DNA of 64,000 nucleotides, taken from positions 49,369 to 113,368 of the IMG/VR virus record IMGVR_UViG_3300046328_000321. One strand, given 5' to 3'. Shown here piece after piece: positions 2,771-49,460 of this stretch. Numbering within the stretch: the first letter of the stretch is position 1; every line of letters begins with the position of its first letter. The notes under the pieces were generated by a model. That model saw only the letters and a program-made list of their open reading frames with translations. It was not told where the DNA came from and searched no databases. Source of the DNA: a virus. The position numbers were made by a program, and so were the translations under genes.

Positions 2771-5700
2771 TTATTTATTCCAAACTCTAGTACAGTTTAT
2801 CTCAACAGTTTTACCTTCATCAGTGGGATGAAAAGTTAAAGTTAGAGAATCTGTATCTAAAGATATTTCACCTGGAGATGGTAAGGCACCAGATATGATT
2901 ACAGGGACCGTGTTATTATTAAGTTTGCCAGAAATAGCTGTATCTATAACCACTTCTTTACAGTTCATATCGAAAGATTCGGTACCCTGTAATTCATTTC
3001 CTAACTTAATGGCATTATCACTACCATTTGAAACTATGGTTGTAACACCACAGAACTTATCAGATACCACATGGTCATTGGTACCATCGTATCCCAAACC
3101 AAACATAACATCAAGTCTACTATCTGCTTGCCTTATTGCTGAAACGACTATTGTATAAACAGTGTTACCATTTTTAGTAATAAATATTGTTGTACCAATG
3201 CGTTTTATACCGACATTATCCGAACTTGAAACAGAGAACGATGAAATACCGGCAACAGCTCCATTTTTATTTGAGCTATCTCTAATGCTATAATGTAAGA
3301 CGTCACTTGTACATATGTTAACAGTAGAAGATGTGCTGAATAGTAAATAAATAAGTGGTCTATCACCACGCTTATGTTTACCCACACCTACAAAAGTAAA
3401 TCTATTTAAAATATTTGACATATCTGCACATGACACAGTCAACTCAAAATCACCCGTGACTTGTTTATCACCTACAGCAAATTGACCTACATTGTTACCA
3501 GGAAAAGTAACTCTATTGGATCCATCTAAATAAACATCTTTAGATTTAAATACAGAGTGCGCACTCACGATACCAGTGGGTAAATTGGATAATGCAGGTA
3601 CTGTATTGCTTGTAAGTACAGGTACACCAGTTTCTGTTCTTGTAAAGAATGTAGGTACTTTGATACTCAGCCTTGTAGCGTTATCTTTTAAAACACCTTC
3701 AGCTAAACCAAATTTATAATAATTACCAGAAATAAAAGATGTACCAGAAACACCGTTGGTAAAAGCTATGTTAATGCCGTATGCTAAGGGTTCAGGAGTC
3801 GACGATGTTAATTTAGAACCACTGTGATCGAGTTCCCAATTAGTCCCATTCCAACCATAATTCTTAGTACATATCCATCTAGAAGCACCACCGTGTGGGG
3901 TGTTGTTTAACCCAGCTGTAATAACACCAGCTCTGAAAGAGTACTTATCAATATTCAGATGTGCTATGAACATAGTGAATAAAACACCATCACTCAGCAT
4001 AAATGACATTTGGCAATCGTAATTTGAAGAATCAGAGACAATGTTACTACGTAACGTAGCATAGCTACCAGACGAATTATCGATCGATCTTAATATCGAC
4101 ATTACAGGGTAACCATAACCATTGTTACCACGTATCACTGTGTTGATAGTACCATCTAAATTAATAAGGTTATAACCTTCATTATTTTCAACTGTAAATC
4201 TATACCAAACACCATTATTTTTTACAAAATTGTAAGTTGATATAGACTTGTCACTTGAACTTGGGTAATTTGTTTTATTTACAGGTGATGTTGTTTGTCC
4301 AAATGTCATATAACTAACATGATTGTACAACCAATGTCCTTGTAAACCGTATATTTGACCTTTATTTCTTTTACAATCCTGATAATAACTGGTTACATAG
4401 TTAGATGTTTCAACAACGGTTGTATCTACCGACCACCAGAATCCCAGTTTGGTACTAGATTCTGTCTTATAAACACAAAGCATCTGATCTGCACTAGATT
4501 CGAAGTCAACAACTAGATAGTTGATATATGTATAATCAACAGGTATGAAAGGATTAGTCGTTGTGGAATCATAAAGGGTCCAACTTGTACCATCAAACGA
4601 AGCTAACGCGTCTAAACCAACTGCCCATATTTTATTATCATAACCAATGGCAACACCATTACAAGAACTAAAATTAGCATTTCTGTAACCTGTTACTGTG
4701 ACTTGCTGCGCGGTTAAAGAGACTCTCGGATTAACAGTCCATAATCCAGTATCCCGACAAGCTATAAACACAACATCGTTTCTAACTGCTATTTGATGTA
4801 TGTTAGTAAACGAACCAGTTATTCTCCAATATCTAGATCCAGGTATCGAATAAAGAATAATCTCATTTTTTTTCGGTAATAAAACACTAGAAGCATCGTA
4901 TGGTTTAGCTGCGGATATTTGTTCAGGTCCGTAAATATCAGGACTGACAACACCCATAACACCTTTGTTATTGTGAACAACAGCATAATCTGTGTCACTT
5001 AAAAGACCCGTGATAAGTTCAGGAACCTGTTTATTTTTAGGTATGAGATTATACCCACTAACATAATCAACACCATTACTAACCTTAATAAAAGGTTGTA
5101 CGCTATATTTATAAGAAGCTGATCCTACTGGACCACCCGTTGTAATTTCTAAAGAGATTCGTTTTGCAAAGTCTTTCCTAAAATATAGATTAGGATTATT
5201 TGTAATTTCCTCATTCTCCCAGTCTCCAGTTAACTGTATGGATCCGGAACCATTTGCAAGTGCGTCTATATCTAAGAAGTAGTCAGAATTAGTGTTACTA
5301 CTTTCAAAAGCATAACCAAATATGTTTTGTATCTTAGATCTGTTTCTATATACGTCTGAAAAATGTGTAAAATTTTGAACACGTTCTTCTCTGGTACCAA
5401 TAGAGTTAAAAATACATCCTGATCTTTGATTGAAACCTAGATTCACAGAACCATCTGCGTGTTTTAAAGAATAATTTCTTTTATTTATAACAGGAAGATT
5501 AATATTTGGAATTATGGTTTCAGTGTAACACGATGTTGTATTAGGGTGTGATCTAGTTGTTACTCTTACTATGTCTTCAGAAGAGTTTATATTTAAAATT
5601 GGAAAACAACTATAAGAATCAAAATAACCTAAAGTATTAGAATAAAAATTGTTAACCAACAGATTTTTTATCATTGACTTGTAAATTACCCAAGGGATTC

Positions 5701-12719: not shown

Positions 12720-13547
12720 GTGTCAAATACTGACTTACTATCGTTACCACCTCATCGAGAAAAGCAAATCGTGAAAATTCAATTTGACAACGAACAAACC
12801 TCAGTACGCCCACCTATGGATATCGATCTGTATAACAGGTGTGTTGATAAAACAATGGAATTTCTGAACTTCAAAGAAGATCCTAAAGATAAACGCAAAC
12901 TCGACAGGTACATCAAAACCAAGTTACCTAATCTGATTAAACTTCTCACCTATCCTGAACCAGGTGCCTTTACAGCCGTCAAACTGACGATCTCAGACAT
13001 GATGCATCTTAATGACGCAGGTGTCTTGAAACATCTGACAGAAGGATCAGCTATCGATAAAGCCAAGACTTATGTGTCTGAGTTGAAAATTATCGGAGAA
13101 GAGACTCTTGCTACAGGTAAAGTTCTACCTGTTTACTGTTATCACCCTACAGTGGAACATATGGTGAATTATTTTACCCATTGTTTCAACAACCATAAAG
13201 GTGACTTGATGGCCAGAGACCTTTTGTTCTTTAGCCCCATGGGGTTGATTAACAAAGAAGGTAATGTGTTGTCTGAACTTGAAGTAGCAGATACTATGAT
13301 CTCAGGTACTTATAAACTTAACGGTAAGTGGAGAGAATTCTCATCATGGATGGTTGCTCATAATAAAACTGTTAATAATACATTCAGCAGGGTTAAATAT
13401 ATAAAATTGTTAAAAATGATGCTGGCCATGTTGACTATAAAGGTTATATGGGATACCAAACAAAATGATAAAATGACTGATATAAGTATTATGAACCATG
13501 TTGAGTTTATTTTATCAAGTGTAACTAAAGACTGGTTATATGCATAA
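12720..13547 (+). CDS. Hypothetical protein
   Basis: 275-aa ORF. Confidence 0.6.
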   Translation: MSNTDLLSLPPHREKQIVKIQFDNEQTSVRPPMDIDLYNRCVDKTMEFLNFKEDPKDKRKLDRYIKTKLPNLIKLLTYPEPGAFTAVKLTISDMMHLNDAGVLKHLTEGSAIDKAKTYVSELKIIGEETLATGKVLPVYCYHPTVEHMVNYFTHCFNNHKGDLMARDLLFFSPMGLINKEGNVLSELEVADTMISGTYKLNGKWREFSSWMVAHNKTVNNTFSRVKYIKLLKMMLAMLTIKVIWDTKQNDKMTDISIMNHVEFILSSVTKDWLYA

Positions 13548-13640: not shown

Positions 13641-13667
13641 GGGCGGATGGCGAAATAGGTAGACGCA
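13641..13667 (+). pseudogene. 5' fragment of a Leu-type tRNA (acceptor strand and D arm)
   Basis: GGGCGGA TG GCG AAATAGGTAGA CGC A; complementary acceptor strand TCTGCCC-A-CCA at 14603-14613. Confidence 0.75.
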
Positions 13668-13670
13668 AAA

Positions 13671-14168
13671 ATGGATAAAGAAAAACTTCTTGGATTATAT
13701 CCAGGTTACACTTCTGTTTTGGGACCTTACACAAGGCCGGACGGTAGAAAACACGTTATACTTAATAATTCTAACGCTTCTAACGGAACTAAGGGTAAGA
13801 CTAAAACTATCTCTTACCCCAAAGCCTTAATGGAAGTTGAATTAAATAAGAAACTCAATCCAGATGAAACTGTCGATCACCATGACAGAGATTTCACTAA
13901 CGATAACAGTATTAATTTAAAAGTGAAGACGCGCTCTTTACACGCGTCTGAAGATGCTTTACGAATTAAGGTAGAAGATATTAGATGTCCACAATGTGGA
14001 AAATATTTTACACCTAGTGTAAGTCAAAGAAATAAAGTAAACAGTATAATTGCTGGTCCATTTTGTAGTAAACAGTGTTCCGGGTTATATGGAACAAATA
14101 TTCAAAAAGGTATGCAGCCTTTTAAGAGAACAGAAATTAGAAAATATTACTATCGTAAAGATAAATAA
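13671..14168 (+). CDS. HNH homing endonuclease with C-terminal zinc finger
   Basis: ETVDHHDRDFTND..NL HNH motif; CPQC...FCSKQC. Confidence 0.85.
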   Translation: MDKEKLLGLYPGYTSVLGPYTRPDGRKHVILNNSNASNGTKGKTKTISYPKALMEVELNKKLNPDETVDHHDRDFTNDNSINLKVKTRSLHASEDALRIKVEDIRCPQCGKYFTPSVSQRNKVNSIIAGPFCSKQCSGLYGTNIQKGMQPFKRTEIRKYYYRKDK

Positions 14169-14191
14169 ATATTTTATTAGAGAACATTGGT

Positions 14192-14521
14192 GGCCCGCTG
14201 ATGAAATTGGTAGACATAACGGAAAACCAGAAAGTTAGTCCGCCTTTACTAGTAATAGTAAAGTAAACTGTGGGTGAACTCAGGAGAATCTAAAGCGCAA
14301 GCCATGATAATCGTGAGCCAAGCTAGAAGTACACTTCTAGAAGGTGCAGAGACTACTGGAAAGGTAAAGTCCTTTTAATAACCAGCTAGAGCGCCCACTA
14401 CCGTAATAGAATTTCTATCGGTAAAGAGATAGTCCATGTCCATTGGAAACTTTGGAACACATGCTTAAAATCCGTCGCTTCCGAAAGGAGCATTCCGGTT
14501 CGATTCCGGAGCGGGCCACCA
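14192..14521 (+). tRNA. trnL: tRNA-Leu(UAA) interrupted by a group I intron
   Basis: Joining 14192-14223 to 14464-14521 gives a cloverleaf: acceptor GGCCCGC/GCGGGCC, anticodon arm ACGGA-CTTAAAA-TCCGT, long variable arm, TTCGATT loop, CCA. Confidence 0.88.
14224..14463 (+). ncRNA. ORF-less group I intron (IC3/trnL-like core), 240 nt
   Basis: P AACTCAGGAGAA, Q AATCGTGAGCC, R GTGCAGAGACT, S AAGAGATAGTCC; P3 GTGGGTG/CGCCCAC; terminal G at 14463. Confidence 0.85.
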
Positions 14522-14543
14522 ATGTTCTCTTCAATCTTTAATA

Positions 14544-14613
14544 CTGCTCGTAGTTAAATGGATATAAAGCTTCTAAGTTTTAGTTCCAAGTTCGATTCCC
14601 GTTCTGCCCACCA
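14544..14613 (+). pseudogene. Chimeric pseudo-tRNA: degenerate Arg(UCU) body fused at the T-loop to the 3' end of the Leu fragment
   Basis: GCTCGTAGTTAAATGGATATAA...CTTCTAA...CCAAG TTCGATT then CCCGT TCTGCCC ACCA; T-stem and acceptor strands do not pair with each other. Confidence 0.6.
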
Positions 14614-14639
14614 TGTATTATTGTTTATTAATACACGAT

Positions 14640-14716
14640 AGGTCTGTAACTCAATAGGATAGAGTAACTCCCTTCTAAGGAGTAAGTTGCTGGTTCGAAT
14701 CCAGTCAGACCTACCA
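14640..14716 (+). tRNA. trnR: tRNA-Arg(UCU)
   Basis: AGGTCTG/CAGACCT acceptor, ACTCC-CTTCTAA-GGAGT arm, TTCGAAT loop, CCA. Confidence 0.93.
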
Positions 14717-14732
14717 TTTATTAATAAATAAC

Positions 14733-15398
14733 GCCGGTTTAACTCAGTTGGTAGAGTAATCGCCTTAAAAAAAAAATAATGTTTAAAAGGATTGATTATG
14801 TATAAAAATCAAAAGAGAAGATTAGATACTAACGGTTATATAATAGTTCACTGTCCAGAACACCCAAAAGCAATGAAGAACGGGAGTTTTGAAGGATATG
14901 TTTACGAACATGTTTTGATGGCAGAAGAAATTTTGGATAGATCTGTTAAAGAAGGTGAAGTAGTTCACCATCTTGATGAAAATAAAAGTAATAATTCCCC
15001 TGATAATTTATTGATTTTATCAAACCCAATGCATGTTAAACTTCATGGTTGGTTAAACAAACATGAAATAAAACCTAAAGAAAAACAAGAAGAGCGAATC
15101 AGATTAGGTTGTATCAGATGTAAAACATGTGAAAAACCAATTTTACCTAATTTAATATACTGTTCTCCTCAGTGCACATTCTTTGATAAAAGAAAATATG
15201 ATCATCCGAATAAAGAAACTTTGACTCAAATGGTCTGGTCTGAACCTACTTCTAAAGTTGCTATGAAATTAGGTGTTTCAGACAAAGCCATAGAAAAACT
15301 TTGTAAGAAATTTGAAGTTGAAAAACCTCCCAGAGGTTATTGGATGAAAAATAAATCAAAAGTGTAAGTCGTCTGTTCGAGTCAGACAACCGGCACCA
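14733..15398 (+). pseudogene. tRNA-Thr(UGU) split at the anticodon loop by an HNH gene
   Basis: 5' half GCCGGTT...ATCGC-CTT (14733-14766); 3' half GTAA-GTC-GTCTG-TTCGAGT-CAGAC-AACCGGC-ACCA (15364-15398); 3' anticodon-stem strand missing. Confidence 0.8.
14798..15367 (+). CDS. HNH homing endonuclease with zinc finger and C-terminal HTH
   Basis: YVYEHVLMAE...VVHHLDENKSNN.PDNL; CKTC..YCSPQC; KVAMKLGVSDKAI..PPRGYW. Confidence 0.88.
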   Translation: MYKNQKRRLDTNGYIIVHCPEHPKAMKNGSFEGYVYEHVLMAEEILDRSVKEGEVVHHLDENKSNNSPDNLLILSNPMHVKLHGWLNKHEIKPKEKQEERIRLGCIRCKTCEKPILPNLIYCSPQCTFFDKRKYDHPNKETLTQMVWSEPTSKVAMKLGVSDKAIEKLCKKFEVEKPPRGYWMKNKSKV

Positions 15399-15416: not shown

Positions 15417-15493
15417 GGGTGTGAAGCTTAAGTGGTATAAGCATCGGTCTCATAAACCGGAGATAGTCGATTCGAGTTCGACGGCACCCACCA
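15417..15493 (+). tRNA. tRNA with CAU anticodon (Ile2 or Met)
   Basis: TCGGT-CTCATAA-ACCGG arm, GTCGA-TTCGAGT-TCGAC, CCA; G7-G66 mismatch and A8 are atypical. Confidence 0.8.
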
Positions 15494-15519: not shown

Positions 15520-15554
15520 AAAGCCCTCCGCTATTACTGCGGAGGGCTTTTTTT
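15520..15554 (+). terminator. Intrinsic terminator of the tRNA cluster
   Basis: AAAGCCCTCCGC/GCGGAGGGCTTT hairpin plus T-run. Confidence 0.85.
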
Positions 15555-15560
15555 ATTTGC

Positions 15561-16354
15561 AATAGGACTTACACAGAAATTCGTCAGCATTCACCGTTGA
15601 TGACACGGGACGGTAAATGTGCCGTCTCCACATGGAGCAAAGAATGAAACTTTTTATTGAGGGTGACAAATTCAAGGCAATTTGCAGTCACTGTAAAGAT
15701 TGGGTTGACACGACCTTCAAATATCGGGATGTGTCGTTCAGCAACGGTTCCGGTGTGGTGAAAGACATCCTGGTTGCGGTGTGCGACAGCTGTGGTCAAG
15801 TGGTGGCCACCCCGCCCCAGTCCACTCCAAAAATAAAGAAATCGCGCGCCAAAGCGCTCAAGTCGGTGGAAGTCAGTGTCCCAGCCACTCTGGACGATGC
15901 GGTGAACGTAGCGATGCACGCTATTGATGTCGACTTCTCACAAGAATTCAAAAAGAAGGCCTTGTGGCTGTTTGTGCGAACCTACGCCAATGGTCCTAAA
16001 GACCCGATCGGGTTGAAGGCGGAATATGCAGCCAAGATTGGTGCTTTTGGGAAAGTCAAGTCTCGGTTTTCTTTCAAGGTTTCAGAGGCGATGCTGGTGG
16101 ATCTCAAAAAGGCTTCCGAAACCTTCGGTGAGAATCAAACAGAAACACTCAAGATTGCCGCCTTTGACCTTTACAACAAAGTCATTGAGCAGAAAGACAA
16201 GCGGCTGATTGCCAAGCTGCGGGACATCGCCTACATGGCGTGAGCTGGTGTCACCGAAGGTCCAACTCTTTAGCCTTTGTCCTTTCCCACTATCCCAACT
16301 GCTCCTGCAGCCATTCCCTAGTGCATAGCGTAGAAATTATGCGTAGGTCCTATT
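15561..16354. mobile_element. GC-richer island bounded by imperfect 15-bp inverted repeats
   Basis: AATAGGACTTACACA (15561-15575) versus reverse complement of TGCGTAGGTCCTATT (16340-16354), 13/15 match; abrupt GC rise inside. Confidence 0.65.
15644..16243 (+). CDS. MqsA/YgiT-type zinc-finger protein, probable orphan antitoxin
   Basis: CSHC...YRDV...VKDILVAVCDSCG; GGAG RBS; host-like codon usage. Confidence 0.65.
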   Translation: MKLFIEGDKFKAICSHCKDWVDTTFKYRDVSFSNGSGVVKDILVAVCDSCGQVVATPPQSTPKIKKSRAKALKSVEVSVPATLDDAVNVAMHAIDVDFSQEFKKKALWLFVRTYANGPKDPIGLKAEYAAKIGAFGKVKSRFSFKVSEAMLVDLKKASETFGENQTETLKIAAFDLYNKVIEQKDKRLIAKLRDIAYMA

Positions 16355-16419
16355 TAAAAAGAAAACCTGGCTTTGGCTGGGTTTTCTTTTTTCCCTATAC
16401 ATTCATAATGTGTCAAAAA

Positions 16420-17019
16420 ATGAAAATTCCTTTATTTAAAAAGATTCCTCGAAGTGTCTATTTGGCATTTTCTGGGGGTGTTGATTCAACAGTATTATTA
16501 AATATTCTTCTTGAAAAGAAAATCGATGTGACATTACTTACAGTGGATCACGGAACTGACTACAGTTTTACAGAAGTTGAATTTGCTTTTGAGACTTCTG
16601 TTAGACATGGATTGGAAATCGTTTTTAAAGATATTCCTAAGTTTGATAAATCAACTTCTTTGGAATCTTTTTGGTCTAGAAAAAGAAATTTAATTTTTCA
16701 ATCCATGGATAAACCGGTGTTAACGGGACACCATTTGAACGATGCTGTTGAATGGTATTTCATGACATTTTGCCAGGGTAATGCCAGGGTTATTCATTAT
16801 CAGAATGAAAATGTGTTAAGACCTTTAATCATAACTCCTAAAGAGAAAATTATCAAATACGCAGAAGAGAGAAAAATAGAACATCTGACAGATCCGACCA
16901 ACAGCGACAGTGACTTTAATCTGCGTAACAAGATTAGAAATAATGTACTACCTGTAGTTAAAACAGCATTCCCAGGTTTAGAAACTACTGTTAGAAAGAT
17001 ACTCTTAAATTCAGAATGA
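16420..17019 (+). CDS. tilS: tRNA(Ile)-lysidine synthase-like PP-loop ATPase
   Basis: AFSGGVDS, VDHG, TGHHLND..E, RPL, DPTN...LRNKIR motifs. Confidence 0.85.
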   Translation: MKIPLFKKIPRSVYLAFSGGVDSTVLLNILLEKKIDVTLLTVDHGTDYSFTEVEFAFETSVRHGLEIVFKDIPKFDKSTSLESFWSRKRNLIFQSMDKPVLTGHHLNDAVEWYFMTFCQGNARVIHYQNENVLRPLIITPKEKIIKYAEERKIEHLTDPTNSDSDFNLRNKIRNNVLPVVKTAFPGLETTVRKILLNSE

Positions 17020-28548: not shown

Positions 28549-31380
28549 ATGCCTGTCATACAGGAAATCATTCAGTTTGATGATATGTTTCATAAACTAC
28601 ATCACACACCTACTCTTATTAACCACATAGCTTGCGCCACATTGGAAGATAGGGAGAAGGTAAAAGAAATTCTTACCACTCATCTTAACAGTGATCAGAT
28701 AAGTTTAGTACCTTCATGTCAATGCGGAGCTACTAAAGGTGAATATTCCAAGAGTATGGTTTGTCCCGTCTGTAATACAGAAGTAAAAACTTCTGTGACT
28801 ACAGATATCGAACCAGTAGTCTGGCTGAAGCAACCAGAGAGTGTGGATAAGTTGATCAGTCCTATCTTTCTGATGATGTTAATCAAAAGGTTTACCAAAT
28901 CAGGATTCTCAGTGATCGAATGGTTATGTAATACAAATTACTCTTCGACATCTAAACCTCCTGATAAAGTATTAGCTAAAATCCAGACATGTGGGATTGA
29001 ACGAGGTTATAACAACTTCGTTAGGAATTTTGATCCTATTATGGATTTGTTGTTTTCATTCATTGAGTTTGCTCCTAAAACTCAAAAGTTTGAAATGAAA
29101 CAAGAAGACAAAATAGATCATTTACAACAACTAATCAGAGATCACAGAAACGCGATCTTTAGTGAGTATTTACCCATCCCAAATAAGATCATTTTGATCT
29201 TTGACACCCAGCCATTAGGGACTTATACTGATCCTTCAGTAATGAAAGCTGTGGATGCTATTAACACAATGGTGTCCATTGATCGAGATTTCTATGATCA
29301 GAGTTCAAAAACCAAACAGAACCGTACGATCAAAGCTTTGATGTTACTTTGTGATTTTTATAACGATACCTTATTGTTAATGGCACATAAGCATGGTCAT
29401 TTCCGTAAGCACATGTTTGGTAGTAGAACCAATTTTTCTTTCCGAGCTGTAATCACATCGATTACAGCCGGTAAGAATTATGATGAGATCGAAGCTCCAT
29501 GGTGTATGGCAATCACAGCATTCCGTATTCATTTGTTGAATAAACTTTTGAAATACGGTATGGGTCATAACGAAGGGTTAGGATTTTTGTATAAACATAC
29601 GTACAAACACCATTCTCTTCTGGAAAGATTCATGCAGGAGATGATTGATGAGACCCCAATGAAAGGTATTTTCATTTGTTTGCAACGCAATTAACTATTT
29701 AGGTTGCCTTTATCAGTAATGGTAAAGTAAAATTCTCCTTAATTGACGGGAACATCCTGCTAAAAACTTGTACACCAAACTACAATAGAAATATATGTAG
29801 CGGCCAAGGTAACTACTTGGGTATGGTAAAAGAAACAAGTCTGGGATAATCCGCAGCCGAACTCTTAACCAGAAATGGAAAGAGATGGGTTCAACGACTA
29901 GTCGAAAGACGTAACTCTTAGCAAGAGTGAAACAGGAGACCCCTTTTGTATAAAAGGGTGAAGATATAGTCTGCTCTCGTATGAATAATACGAGCGGGTG
30001 TCGTAGCACACCGGGTAAAGAGAGTAAGCTGTTTAAGCTGAGCGACTTTACTGGACAATGGCCGAGTTTGTTACAAGGGTCAGCTCAACGAGTGAAAATC
30101 ACAAAGTTCAAAACTAACCCTATGGACTTGACTATAGGGATGCACATCTTAACAGTGCGTGCTAATCATTATTGGCATTTAACCAGGTAACTGGTTAAAG
30201 AATCTCTTCGAATTGCTGGAAACTCCTTAGAGTCTCATTACCACTGCGAGCTGTAAAGCAAAGCCACGGTTTAAAAAGTATGAGAATTGGACAATCAGCA
30301 GCGAAACTTCCTACGGGAAGTACGTTCAACGATCATCGGAGTTACGCCCGAGTAGAACCTCAAGCGAGGAAGAAGTGGAGAGCACCCTACTATTTATGAG
30401 GGTGAAGATATGATCTGTTCCTGTATGAAAATACAGGCGGGTGTCTTAGCACACCGAGTAAAGAGAGTAAGCTATTATAGCTGAGCGGCTTTACTGGACA
30501 ATAAGCCAAATGCTGATCAAAAGGTCCTCTTAACTTGCGAAGGTTAAGATGTATTTCCTGAATTGCTGGGAACTCTCGTTAGACTGTTGAACTAAAGCGG
30601 AGTGTGAAAACACAAACGTAAATGTTTGAAAATCAGCAGGTAGAGACAATCAGCAGCTAAGACGCTAAAGACAGTTGTGAAACTGGCTATGCGTAAAGTT
30701 CAACGACTATCCGGTAGCACGGAGTAGACCCATGAGGGTCAAAGTAGGAAACGTCTCTAGGAAGACGGTGATATAGTCTGCTCTCACATGAGAATGTGAG
30801 CGGGTGTCAAAGCACACCGGGTGAGGAATCGAAAGATGGCTTCACTGGACAAAAGGTTTGATGGTAGAGTATTGCCATCTCTAAACATTCTTAACTGCGG
30901 GAAACTCCTTAGAGCTTTGTTGACCAACCTGTGGTAGAAATACACACAGCGGCTGAACTAACTATTCAGATATGGTAAAACTAACAAAGATTGGACAATC
31001 CGCACCGAAGCTCCTAACTAAGTATATTAACATATACTTACATGGAGTGTGGCCAACGACTATCCCGTAAGGGAGTACACTCAAGCGAGTGGAAACAGAA
31101 TGTACCGAAAGGTAAAGATATAGTCTAATCAGATATGAAAGTATCTGGATCCTTAAGCAAGATCGATGAGTAGTAGCGTACTCAGGTTGGTGCTAGAGAG
31201 TTATGGTTTATGGATGCTCTCAACGTATCCATAGCTCTTGATCAGAAAATGTCAGATATGTGGTATCCACTTTCACCGGAGTTCAACATCTTCCAAATGA
31301 CAAAACCATTTCAAGTATCGGGAAACATAGCGATCCCTAAACCTAACATCGCTACCATTTCATCTTGGTTGGAAAACTAG
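28549..31380 (+). CDS. nvRNAP beta' catalytic subunit (phiKZ gp55-like), spliced, ~477 aa; exons 28549-29691, 30062-30163, 30506-30517, 30857-30865, 31213-31380
   Basis: N-terminal zinc ribbon, RKH.FG.R..FS.RAVI; splicing restores QRN-PSL and PNAD-FDG-D in frame. Confidence 0.93.
29692..30061 (+). ncRNA. Group I intron 1 of nvRNAP beta' (370 nt, ORF-less)
   Basis: P1 GCAAT/GTTGC with U.G; P AATTGACGGGAA, Q AATCCGCAGC, R GTTCAACGACTA, S AAGATATAGTCT; terminal G. Confidence 0.92.
30164..30505 (+). ncRNA. Group I intron 2 of nvRNAP beta' (342 nt, ORF-less)
   Basis: P1 GTGCT/GGCAT; AATTGCTGGAA, AATCAGCAGC, GTTCAACGATCA, AAGATATGATCT; terminal G. Confidence 0.92.
30518..30856 (+). ncRNA. Group I intron 3 of nvRNAP beta' (339 nt, ORF-less)
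   Basis: Short P1 GAT/GTC; AATTGCTGGGA, AATCAGCAGC, GTTCAACGACTA, GATATAGTCT; terminal G. Confidence 0.9.
30866..31212 (+). ncRNA. Group I intron 4 of nvRNAP beta' (347 nt, ORF-less)
   Basis: P1 GATGGT/GCCATC; P10 AGAGTATT/GATGCTCT; AACTGCGGGA, AATCCGCACC, CAACGACTA, AAGATATAGTCT; terminal G. Confidence 0.92.
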
Positions 31381-40738: not shown

Positions 40739-41242
40739 ATGAACATCTTTGTTCTGGATTTAGATCCTAAGACATCAGCAAGATATTTGTGTAATGAACA
40801 TTGCTGTAAGATGGTTGTGGAATCCGCTCAAATGTTATCTACAGCACACAGACTTAAGTCAGATGACACAGACGGACTTTACAAATTAGCTCACATCAAT
40901 CATCCATCTACTATTTGGACCAGAGAATCGGTAGAAAATTACTTGTGGCATTATGAATACTTTTGCTATATGGCAGAAGAGTATGAGGAACGTTATGGTA
41001 AGATTCATTTAACATACATGATGTTAAAGAACAGACTTCAGTTACCTCCAGAGAAAATAACGGAAACTAAAAGGACTCCGTTTACTTTGTGTATGCCGGA
41101 AATTTATAAACAGGACGATCCCGTTCAAGCTTATAGAGCTTTTTATATAGGTGAAAAACTTAAGTTTGCTCACTGGTCTTTACCATCAACAATACCATCA
41201 TGGATCATCAAACACGTAAGGAACAATCATGCAGAACAATGA
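40739..41242 (+). CDS. Pyrimidine-dimer DNA glycosylase (DenV-like)
   Basis: MNIF.LD.DP, H..KM..E.AQMLST, H.NHP...W.RES, AYR.FY motifs. Confidence 0.8.
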   Translation: MNIFVLDLDPKTSARYLCNEHCCKMVVESAQMLSTAHRLKSDDTDGLYKLAHINHPSTIWTRESVENYLWHYEYFCYMAEEYEERYGKIHLTYMMLKNRLQLPPEKITETKRTPFTLCMPEIYKQDDPVQAYRAFYIGEKLKFAHWSLPSTIPSWIIKHVRNNHAEQ

Positions 41243-43711
41243 ACTGAAACTTCAATATGTGGGTATACAAGGACTTAATTCTTACTGTATGCATAATTCA
41301 TCATCACGAGCTGTGATGTTTTCTTCTCACATTGGACAACGTCTGGTAATTGAAGGAGCTCAACAGAAACTTGTACAAACTGGGCTTGAACAAGAATTTG
41401 GTAAATATACGTTCAATGTCAAGATGCCTGAGAATGGTCGTATTGTTGCTATCTTAGACAGGTATCCTCGTGGTGTAGGTAGTAAATCTCTTAATTTCAA
41501 TCCAGAGACCTATGTCTTCTTTGAACGTGAAGACAACAAGCAAGTAGATTATATTCTCATCCCGTACAAAGCTCAGTTCCATCAGAATTTTGGTTTTAAG
41601 TACAAGATGAATAAGAAAAATATCGGAAAGCTTCAGCCAGGTGCTTATATTGCAAAAGATACTATTTTTGCAGACAGTCCTGCTGTTTCTGACAATGGTA
41701 ATTTCATGTTTGGTATCAATGCCAACATTGCCCTGATGTCCATTCCCTCAGTGGCTGAAGATGGCATTATGATCTCCAGAGACTTTCTACCTAAGTTAAA
41801 GTTCAAGATTTATGATACTCGACAAGTCAACTTTGGATCTAAACAATTTCCATTGAACCTTTATGGTACTTTGGATGAAGTAAAACCATTTCCTGAGATC
41901 GGAGATAAGATTCGAGAAGATGGTATTTTGATGGCTTTTAGAGACTTTAACACAGCTCTGTCTCCTGTTGAAATGTCTAAGATGGATTTAATGGAAGTAG
42001 ATCACACTTTTGATGAATGTGTATATGTACGAGGTGGTGTGGGTACTGTGGTTGACATTAAGATTACCAGAAACAACTCACCTATTAAGAACATGCCTGT
42101 GGAAATGTCATGTTATCTGAACCGTTACTGGGAAGCCAATCAAGCTTTTTATAAGAAAGTTATTGATTTAGAAGCCGGTCTGCGTAAAGATAACCGAATG
42201 AAATTTGGAACCACTGATATTTTAACAACATCAAAGTTTGATAAATTAGTTTATGAGGCTATGGTGCATACTAACCATAACTTCAATCAGTTTAAACAAC
42301 CTCTTCAACTCCAATCACGTAAGTCTACTGTAGACGAATACCAGATACAATTTACTATTGAATACACCATTGAACCCTGTGAAGGATTCAAATTGACTGA
42401 TAATCACGGTTTTTACTAGCCGCTTTTGACAGAGATGTCAATCGATCATTTTCCTAATTGCGGGGAACCACCTAAAGCTTCATTGACCAACTTAGTTACG
42501 AAAGTAAGTTAAGGGCTACGCTAACTACGTAGGTATGGTAAAACTAATGAAGATATATGGGCAATCCGCACCGAAGCTCCTAACTAAGTATATTAACATA
42601 TACTTACATGGAGTGTGGCCAACGACTATCCCGTAAGGGAGTAGGCTCATGAGAGTCGAAATGGAAAGCGTCCTACTGTTGAACAGAGGATGAAGATATA
42701 GTCTGTTCCTACATGAAAGTGTGGGTGGGTGTCACAGCACACCGGGTGAAGAATCGAAAGACGGCTTCACTGGACAAAAAGGGAAAAGGTGTTATTTGTA
42801 AAGTAGAAGAACCTGAGAACATGCCTGTCGATGAAAATGGCAACCGTGCCGACATCGTCATGGATGCAGCTTCTACTATCTCACGTATGAACTTAGGCAG
42901 GCTTTACGAGCAACACATGGCATCTGCCTTGCGCGACGTTACTCAAAATGTTCGCATGTTGTTTGGATTTGAACGATTGAAACCAACATCCATTAAAGCT
43001 GAGAATTTGCTAGACAGTTTTCCAATTCAAAAGATCGAAGAAGCTCATCAGTACGTGTTAGGTTTCTATAACCTTATTTCAGAAAAGCAATATAACTTTT
43101 ATTCTAAACTGACAGATCCTAAGCAAATTGCCGAGCATATCTGTGATATCATATCCGATCACGTTTATGCATATATTCCTATTGATAAACAGATCAGTAG
43201 TAAAGATATCGTGAAACGCATCGAGAATTCCATATACAAACCCGTTTATGGAAAAATTACCTATCGAGGTAATTCTGGTGAGGTCGTGCTTACTGAACGA
43301 AATGTGCGCATTGCTCCTTTATACATGATGTTATTGGAAAAAATCGCTGATGATTGGACAGCTGTAGCCACTGGTAATCTTCAGCTACATGGTTTACTGG
43401 CTCAGGTCAACAGACGTGAAAAGCATTCAAGACCTCATAGGAACACTCCTGTTCGCACCATCGGTGAAACAGAGGGACGTTTATTTGTAGGTTATTGTGG
43501 AAGAGAAGCGGTCGCTGAGATGTTGGATCGTTCAGGTAATCCTCTTGTACAAAGACACATGACTAGGAACATTCTTGAAGCCAATCGTCCAACAAATATC
43601 AATGAGATTGTAGATCGTAACTTGGTTAACTACGGTAATACCAAGTCTGTACAGATCATCAACCATATGTTTACTTGTATGGGTTTTAAAACCAAATACG
43701 TTCCAGAATGA
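41229..43711 (+). CDS. nvRNAP beta subunit (phiKZ gp71-73-like), spliced, ~703 aa; exons 41229-42410 and 42782-43711
   Basis: SSSRAVM, EDG; splicing restores KLTDNHG-GKGVIC; SRMNLG and GETE motifs. Confidence 0.92.
42411..42781 (+). ncRNA. Group I intron of nvRNAP beta (371 nt, ORF-less)
   Basis: P1 CGGT/GCCG with U.G; AATTGCGGGGAA, AATCCGCACC, CAACGACTA, AAGATATAGTCT; terminal G. Confidence 0.92.
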
Positions 43712-49205: not shown

Positions 49206-49460
49206 ATGGAACTAGTCATTCCAATGGGAGTCGCGACTCACTACGAGTCGTGGACTGACGAAGCCGGTGATGGCTTCATCCTCTGTGACAGGTCGGTCAA
49301 ATCGACCGTGGACGGTAAAGAGGTTACCGTGACAGACCGGTGGGAATCCGGTCCCTGTAACTTTGACAGTGTGCTTGAAGCCACTGTCAAAGTGGGGGGA
49401 GAGATTGTGAAAGCAATCTCTGTCGAAGCCTCAGAAGGGAGATACATTATTTCTCTCTGA
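49206..49460 (+). CDS. Hypothetical protein
   Basis: AGGAG RBS; terminator downstream. Confidence 0.6.
   Translation: MELVIPMGVATHYESWTDEAGDGFILCDRSVKSTVDGKEVTVTDRWESGPCNFDSVLEATVKVGGEIVKAISVEASEGRYIISL

Follow-up and report, generated by a model that had tools for sequence, protein, structure and literature searches.

General features of the locus

The stretch of DNA analysed here (the window) comprises 64,000 nucleotides (nt) of the IMG/VR record IMGVR_UViG_3300046328_000321 (positions 49,369–113,368) and contains a tRNA-Leu gene that is split around an HNH endonuclease gene and a second, intron-bearing tRNA-Leu gene. The source record is a viral metagenome assembly of 113 kb with a completeness of 43% (CheckV). 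It encodes a divergent family B DNA polymerase of the crAss-like type (PF20286, E 1.9e-208), and the source phage is crAss-like. Nine group I introns were found in the record, which fits the intron-rich crAss-like groups described previously (PMC7886860). A Megablast search of the region against GenBank phages gave no match, and no loci related to the flanking proteins (12720–13544 and 16240–17016) were found in IMG/VR.

The tRNA cluster in question spans from 13641 to a strong terminator at 15520–15550 (window coordinates; the features described below from 13641 to 15398 all lie on the plus strand). Three of its six tRNA-like genes are broken, and ARAGORN calls a single tRNA in the entire window. 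Relatives were collected using an alignment of homologues of the HNH protein as query, which resulted in 66 loci from IMG/VR, 18 from metagenomes and one from GTDB, referred to here by L-numbers.

The split tRNA-Leu gene

The outer, resident tRNA-Leu is present as two pieces. The 5′ piece (13641–13667), as read directly, consists of the acceptor strand GGGCGGA, TG (nt 8–9), a D arm resembling that of type II tRNAs and an A at nt 26. The 3′ piece (14590–14613) reads GTTCGATTCC-CGT-TCTGCCC-ACCA, comprising the T-loop, the 3′ strand of the T stem (CCCGT), the acceptor strand TCTGCCC and ACCA. The two acceptor strands pair at all seven positions (GGGCGGA at 13641–13647 with TCTGCCC; six Watson-Crick pairs and one G-U), and the tRNA-Leu shell that a first-pass annotation of this DNA had recognized in 13641–13667 and 14591–14613 therefore holds. 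Both strands of the window together have 408 T-loop-like motifs, of which two are accompanied by a fully pairing acceptor at the offset expected for a tRNA; the second is a G-U-rich chance site 31 kb away on the opposite strand. The 5′ piece is far closer to tRNA-Leu than to other isotypes: in a set of 301 phage tRNAs, each 60 nt or longer and 19% of them Leu, 18 of its 25 best matches were 5′ parts of tRNA-Leu. Furthermore, homologous 5′ pieces with the same end nucleotide lie upstream of HNH homologues in L003, L004, L070 and L001, and the T-stem strand CCCGT recurs in L003 and L004, whose outer tRNA-Leu pieces have ACGGG/CCCGT T stems.

The left junction falls between nt 26 and 27 of the outer tRNA-Leu, with the HNH start codon (13671) located 4 nt past the D stem, as noted in the first pass. 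The right junction was also correctly placed there in the conserved T-loop; on reading the sequence it lies within GTTCGATT, with a tRNA-Arg relic on one side and the outer T arm on the other. The outer gene thus retains only nt 1–26 and the part from the T-loop to CCA, having lost its anticodon arm, its variable arm and the 5′ strand of its T stem. No complete cloverleaf exists for it, neither ARAGORN nor Rfam makes a call, and the resident tRNA-Leu is dead. The possibility that it is a functional intron-containing gene was rejected, as the anticodon arm is gone and the intron guide mismatches the outer exon.

The HNH endonuclease

The first gene within the shell (13671–14168) is intact and free-standing and encodes a protein of 165 amino acids (aa) matching PHROG 14913 (E 8e-19). 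Many of its 182 homologues have a Pfam HNH_3 match, while the Pfam search of the protein itself gave none at E 0.001. Residues D69, H70 and N82 and four cysteines are invariant across the family alignment, the C-terminal part being a four-Cys zinc module. The AlphaFold2 model (predicted local distance difference test score 94.9) has as its best solved structural match the nicking endonuclease I-HmuI (1u3e), with a Z score of 5.4 and a root mean square deviation of 3.1 Å over 83 residues at 24% identity. I-HmuI also ranked first in a Foldseek search of the PDB, at E 0.056, with nothing found at E 0.001 or better, and appeared in a PDB sequence profile search only at E 0.6. With its catalytic motif present, the protein is an I-HmuI-like HNH (ββα-metal) endonuclease.

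The inner tRNA-Leu(UAA) and its group I intron

The HNH gene stops at 14168 and a second tRNA-Leu begins at 14192. Exon 1 (14192–14223, nt 1–31) and exon 2 (14464–14521, anticodon loop to CCA) join in silico into a standard tRNA-Leu(taa) cloverleaf. Between nt 31 and 32 lies an intron of 240 nt (14224–14463) without an open reading frame (ORF), whose group I core scores 62.4 bits with RF00028 (gathering score 50) over the full length of the model (positions 1–253). The cloverleaf and the intron score confirm the first-pass claim that the insert brings its own intron-containing tRNA-Leu(UAA).

Exon 1 ends in ...ACGGA (nt 31) and exon 2 starts with CTTAAAA (nt 32), so that the intron does not occupy the classical 34/35 site (U34/A35). 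The omega base is G, as is usual for such introns, but position −1 is A31 in place of U and faces a U of the guide UCCG (within 14234–14244), which from a reading of the sequence pairs with exon CGGA. Other candidate 5′ splice sites, chosen to place U at −1, were tried and none yields a cloverleaf. The intron is homologous to those of L003, L070 and L080, which themselves lie at nt 25/26, have U at −1 and carry the guide GUGUC pairing with GACAU; in L003, P10 also fits exon 2. Compared with L003, exon 1 of the window is longer by 6 tRNA nt (12 extra bases are aligned in the exon and the intron start together). Guide and exon have changed together, which speaks for a functional P1.

The introns of L003 (3039–3260; 59.7 bits with RF00028), L080 (2539–2757) and L070 (from 1781) are found at the junction of the D stem and anticodon stem of tRNA-Leu(UAA), outside the anticodon loop. 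In L004, a member of the same HNH clade, the inner intron has a U.G pair and occupies the classical site. A survey of bacterial tRNA introns (5292 in all) gave U at −1 with G at omega in 98.5% of calls and recognized a separate type for just one further −1 base, C (10.1101/2020.01.27.920355). This survey (Williams, 2020) covered anticodon-loop positions only, and a site at nt 25/26 could therefore not have surfaced in it. No published tRNA introns at 25/26 or 31/32 were found in the literature searched.

The inner tRNA is bracketed by a leader strand (14179–14191) and a trailer strand (14518–14530), which pair to extend its acceptor stem by 13 bp; the minimum free energy fold of the region closes with this helix (z −7.5). 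Such a helix, of 14 bp, was also observed in L003 (2999–3012 with ~3320–3333) and L080 (~2499–2512 with 2813–2826). Its sequences differ among the three loci while the pairing is kept. An extension exceeding 5 bp is found in just 2 of the 301 control tRNAs, both being tRNA-Met genes of L076, and the idea that the helix is peculiar to intron-bearing tRNA-Leu was rejected on that account. It may serve as a processing stem, or as a clamp holding the exons for splicing.

The retention of pairing between differing sequences could also be taken to mean that the stem-bracketed tRNA-Leu is itself the mobile unit, a hairpin-ended cassette which the HNH gene joined separately. However, shells of the HNH family also occur without the bracketing helix (tested for L004 and seen by eye for L071), the family is tied to tRNA-Leu with or without it, and the helices at the two L076 tRNA-Met genes are not nested, so that the helix may be no more than a processing stem. 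This origin is consequently considered quite unlikely.

The last part of the insert (14546–14589) is a decayed piece of a tRNA-Arg(UCU) gene, extending from the 5′ acceptor strand to the T stem with deletions. Fourteen of its 30 top local matches are tRNA-Arg(tct) genes, from related phage loci, the best of which aligns from acceptor to T-loop with two deletions; Rfam gave no tRNA match at E up to 1. It had also been considered as the variable arm of the outer tRNA, given the TTAATACT common to L003, and this was rejected after alignment to tRNA-Arg(tct). The Arg remnant described in the first pass is thus present.

Recurrence of the nested arrangement in other phages

A tRNA-Leu split around an HNH gene and a complete inner tRNA-Leu was found at seven loci, namely the window, L003, L004, L054, L071, L076 and L080. 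The outer acceptor strands mostly differ from locus to locus by position, yet match within each (GGGCGGA/TCTGCCC in the window, ACCAGGA/TCCTGGT in L003, GCGGGGG/TCCCCGC in L004, CCCCGAG/CTTGGGG in L071 and GCCTGAG/CTCAGGC in L080, with L054 and L076 having pairs of their own). Independent landings in different resident tRNA-Leu genes offer a simpler account of this than a single ancient insertion with later drift.

The same complementarity, with few or no mismatches across the seven diverged loci, could alternatively reflect selection on the outer halves for a function at the RNA level: they might act as tRNA-like signals for processing that releases the HNH mRNA, or supply the parts from which unusual RNA processing rebuilds a tRNA. 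Between L070 and the window, a change on one strand of the outer D stem is compensated on the other, which would accord with this. However, in the window the anticodon arm, the variable arm and the 5′ strand of the T stem are all missing from the outer tRNA, the parts retained vary by locus, and independent landings in different resident alleles account for matching ends without selection. Such a function is regarded as very improbable.

The closest comparisons are with L070, which came from the metagenome scan (HNH 75% identical), and L003 (62% identical). In L003 the outer 5′ piece ACCAGGA...GGGA is followed by the HNH start codon 4 nt on, the exons of the inner tRNA-Leu(UAA) are near-identical to those of the window and the outer 3′ piece ends in TCCTGGT-ACCA, while the gene order around the locus is unlike that of the window. 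Inner exon 1 is almost identical letter for letter in the window, L070 and L003 (GGCCCGCTGATGAAAT.GGTAGACAT), whereas their outer tRNAs differ. A common inner exon with different outer tRNAs and gene order is what a mobile cassette predicts.

These observations also bear on the possibility that the locus arose by stepwise local scrambling, the HNH gene having been inserted alone and the inner tRNA-Leu and Arg piece being resident neighbours moved by T-loop recombination in the manner of SegB. The cluster is indeed heavily rearranged, with half of its tRNA-like genes broken and a second HNH gene splitting a tRNA-Thr, and SegB cleaves T-loop motifs of the kind in which the right junction lies and drives tRNA-gene recombination (PMC2330249; PMC13096335). 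However, several independent events would be needed to arrive at a nested order that six further loci, whose outer tRNAs differ, also display. In addition, the inner tRNA is common to the window, L070 and L003 while the outer one is not, and the outer and inner tRNA-Leu are too unlike for a recent duplication. Local scrambling is therefore judged unlikely, though it is the most plausible of the alternatives.

An assembly chimera formed at repeated tRNA motifs was also considered, as the contig is an incomplete metagenome assembly (CheckV 43%) and T-loops are short repeats. A 99% identical HNH protein is nevertheless on record from a 2371-nt contig, and the same architecture was independently assembled in several other contigs, making an artefact scarcely credible.

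The junctions themselves are similar among relatives. The left junction is shared, at nt 26, by the window, L003, L004, L070 and a Salmonella phage (L001). In Salmonella phage vB_Sen_SG_WM_RUS_R7 a 47%-identical HNH gene directly follows GCGTCCT...GGCA, which ends at nt 26, with tRNA-Leu(UAA) and tRNA-Arg(UCU) coming next. The longer outer 3′ pieces (L003, L004, L071 and L080) begin at ~nt 33/34. The order HNH, tRNA-Leu(UAA), tRNA-Arg(UCU) is present in L001 and L019.

The association of this HNH family with tRNA-Leu extends beyond the nested loci. In 23 of the 26 IMG/VR loci L003–L028 (HNH 38–65% identical) the gene is inside a tRNA-Leu or within ~100 nt of one, its placement varying between just upstream, just downstream and within an intron. 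Nine of the loci carry it within a group I intron inserted at the classical position (34/35), immediately 3′ of ...GGACTT. A free-standing HNH gene beside an ORF-less intron in the putative target tRNA gene was found in the window, L003, L004 and L070. These four form one clade in a quick maximum-likelihood tree (Shimodaira-Hasegawa-like approximate likelihood ratio test support 88), which is joined by L071 and L072 in a clade with support 96; the intron-encoded members are found elsewhere in the tree.

A number of variant loci were observed, two of which (L080 and L083) represent decayed forms of the cassette. In L080 a stop codon cuts the HNH gene (1995–2500) short after 124 aa, and the nested intron-bearing tRNA-Leu looks intact. 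In L083 (2001–2330) the HNH start codon is ATA, and a second tRNA-Leu downstream has an ORF-containing intron. L017 and L084 have the HNH gene after a complete tRNA-Leu with an orphan tRNA-Leu 3′ piece from ~nt 35–36 (AATCCCT...) just past it, which is a mirror-image form of the footprint. L089, the sole match of the HNH clade among 185,579 prokaryote genomes, has the HNH gene 28 nt downstream of tRNA-Leu(UAA); it lies on a 71.7-kb contig of a GTDB record labelled as a Promethearchaeati archaeon metagenome-assembled genome, and may be a phage contig binned with the archaeal one.

Origin of the nested locus

Taken together, the arrangement probably represents a homing cassette, consisting of the HNH nuclease gene, a spare tRNA-Leu(UAA) and part of the donor's tRNA-Arg(UCU), which was copied into the resident tRNA-Leu. 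Good evidence supports the historical part, the landing of a cassette in a resident tRNA-Leu gene. The mechanism is set out here as a series of steps, in part conjectural. The nuclease would cut or nick tRNA-Leu genes in the interval from the D stem to the anticodon (~nt 26–34), a preference suggested for the whole family by the outer tRNAs breaking at nt 26–34. Repair would then copy the nuclease gene together with adjoining tRNA genes from the donor genome, as the nesting suggests. The right join may have formed through microhomology in the near-universal GTTCGA T-loop between the donor tRNA-Arg and the resident tRNA-Leu, that is, by an illegitimate T-loop crossover; the junctions are those observed. 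Of the resident tRNA, the anticodon arm, the variable arm and the 5′ strand of the T stem are gone, as observed. Provided that the 240-nt intron splices, the tRNA-Leu(UAA) of the cassette would replace it.

The intron interrupts the apparent target of the nuclease, so that the copy carried is probably immune, an arrangement resembling collaborative homing. The three intron positions (25/26, 31/32 and 34/35) share one ~10-nt stretch with the break points of the outer tRNA-Leu genes, which fits the idea of the intron as a shield. As tRNA-Leu genes are alike in all phages, such a cassette can land in unrelated genomes.

Several observations weigh against a homing cassette. The first-pass annotation had proposed that a homing cassette destroyed the resident tRNA, to be checked by finding the intact allele. 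The first part is partly supported, with the HNH gene and its own tRNA-Leu(UAA) inside a broken tRNA-Leu and the nesting recurring in six loci; the search for an intact GGGCGGA...TCTGCCCA allele, using exact and degenerate patterns, found none in IMG/VR, JGI metagenomes or GTDB genomes. Presence/absence polymorphism was thus not found at this site, all outer alleles recovered being broken by the cassette. The same pattern test for the outer tRNA of L004 matched only its own contig, and the collections searched (GenBank phages and IMG/VR) hold no close relative of the window's phage. The acceptor-pairing screen is loose when used alone, shuffled pairings giving ~5 of 52 loci against 17 observed, and in more distant relatives the left junction varies from ~nt 20 to 34. 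Many members of the HNH family adjoin intron-less tRNA-Leu genes, meaning that the intron is neither required for the cassette nor a general means of self-protection. Finally, the A-U pair at the splice site lies outside the range reported for bacterial tRNA introns, which makes maturation of the spare tRNA uncertain.

A broader reading would see a single I-HmuI-like lineage using tRNA-Leu as a universal landing pad across phage families, its spare tRNA-Leu shielded by introns re-sited to 25/26, 31/32 and 34/35, two of these sites being new for tRNA genes, with the ribozyme of the window active on an A-U in place of U.G. This is put forward only tentatively, as a possibility that is on balance doubtful.

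Neighbouring genes and other introns

Downstream of the shell lies an intact tRNA-Arg(UCU) at 14640–14716 (ARAGORN; 69.3 bits with RF00005). It is followed by a second broken tRNA gene (14733–15398) resembling tRNA-Thr(UGU), whose anticodon loop is split by an HNH_3 gene (14798–15367) with no ribozyme core. This second HNH gene is different from the first (Pfam HNH_3, E 6.9e-8; PHROG 15471, E 8.7e-33). The two halves match the intact tRNA-Thr of L003, and the gene is also dead because 7 nt of the region of the 3′ anticodon stem are missing.

A tRNA with the anticodon CAU was found at 15417–15490 (47.5 bits with Rfam), having been overlooked by ARAGORN. Approximately 750 nt further downstream is a PP-loop ATPase gene (16240–17019; PF01171, E 2.6e-25), whose product may be a lysidine synthetase of the TilS kind acting on a tRNA-Ile2. 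In L004, a jumbo-phage contig, a homologue of this ATPase with 52% identity (1129–1713) adjoins the HNH/tRNA-Leu block. Elsewhere in the window, four group I introns occur in tandem (29691–29994, 30154–30437, 30481–30800 and 30841–31147), separated by exons of ~159, 43 and 40 nt, and the array is directly 3′ of ORF 28549–29694. Another group I intron (42401–42725) is located between ORFs 41229–42419 and 42713–43711.

Implications

If the cassette moves as proposed, it would represent a route by which a homing endonuclease enters a short, essential and highly conserved RNA gene by bringing a whole replacement gene, and not an intron or intein alone. The target is near-identical across phages, and the cassette accordingly occurs in crAss-like, Salmonella, Klebsiella and jumbo phages, where the layered relics would record each landing. 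The HNH family spans genes that are free-standing beside intron-less targets, free-standing beside ORF-less introns and within an intron. The loci also place group I introns in phage tRNA genes, where a 2014 review knew of none, all phage introns known by then being in protein-coding genes, and do so at new positions that put the U.G splice-site rule to the test. As standard tRNA finders miss such genes, the tRNA repertoires of phages are under-counted.

Comparison with known systems

The literature searched gave no account of a cassette in which an HNH gene and a spare tRNA are nested in a tRNA gene. A close phage parallel is SegB of phages T4 and T6, a free-standing GIY-YIG homing endonuclease in a tRNA gene cluster with recognition centred on T-psi-C (PMC2330249; PMC13096335). 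Both are free-standing nucleases among phage tRNA genes, and SegB cuts tRNA genes, carries neighbours with it and drives recombination between tRNA genes. The breaks and recombination of SegB are the documented parallel for the right join of the window in a T-loop (PMC2330249; PMC13096335). However, SegB is a GIY-YIG enzyme and not an HNH one, and in the window only the right junction is in a T-loop. In these papers (PMC2330249; PMC13096335), neither a spare tRNA nested in a broken target, nor an intron, nor a restriction to tRNA-Leu is described for SegB.

In the known pairs attributed to collaborative homing, namely F-CphI with the psbA intron of cyanophage S-PM2 and MobE with the nrdB intron (PMC3984707; PMC6083498; PMC2790892), an intron likewise sits at the presumed cut site of the nuclease, and the window has the same layout of a free-standing HNH gene and an ORF-less intron. 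The targets of F-CphI and MobE are protein-coding and their cleavage has been mapped, whereas the putative target here is a tRNA gene with its site deduced from the junctions, and the pair sits inside a second, broken copy of the target gene.

The tRNA-Leu(UAA) intron of cyanobacteria and plastids is established in the literature. This classical intron (Leu.3Ug) and that of the window occupy the same tRNA and belong to one ribozyme family (RF00028), and distant relatives of the HNH protein are found inside phage introns at exactly the classical site. The intron of the window differs in lying at 31/32 and not 34/35 (its nearest relatives being at 25/26), in having A and not U at −1, and in its host, which is a phage.

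I-HmuI of Bacillus phage SPO1 (PDB 1u3e) resembles the HNH protein in its N-terminal DNA-binding sheet and HNH motif. It is, however, encoded by an intron in a DNA polymerase gene, and has helical DNA-binding domains in place of the four-Cys zinc module.

Integrative elements enter tRNA genes and restore them with a copy of the tRNA end which the element carries. The likeness lies in a tRNA-gene insertion being made harmless by sequence that the element brings. The window has no integrase or att-type repeat, however, and where such elements restore the end of the resident gene, this cassette supplies a whole tRNA gene and leaves the old one broken.

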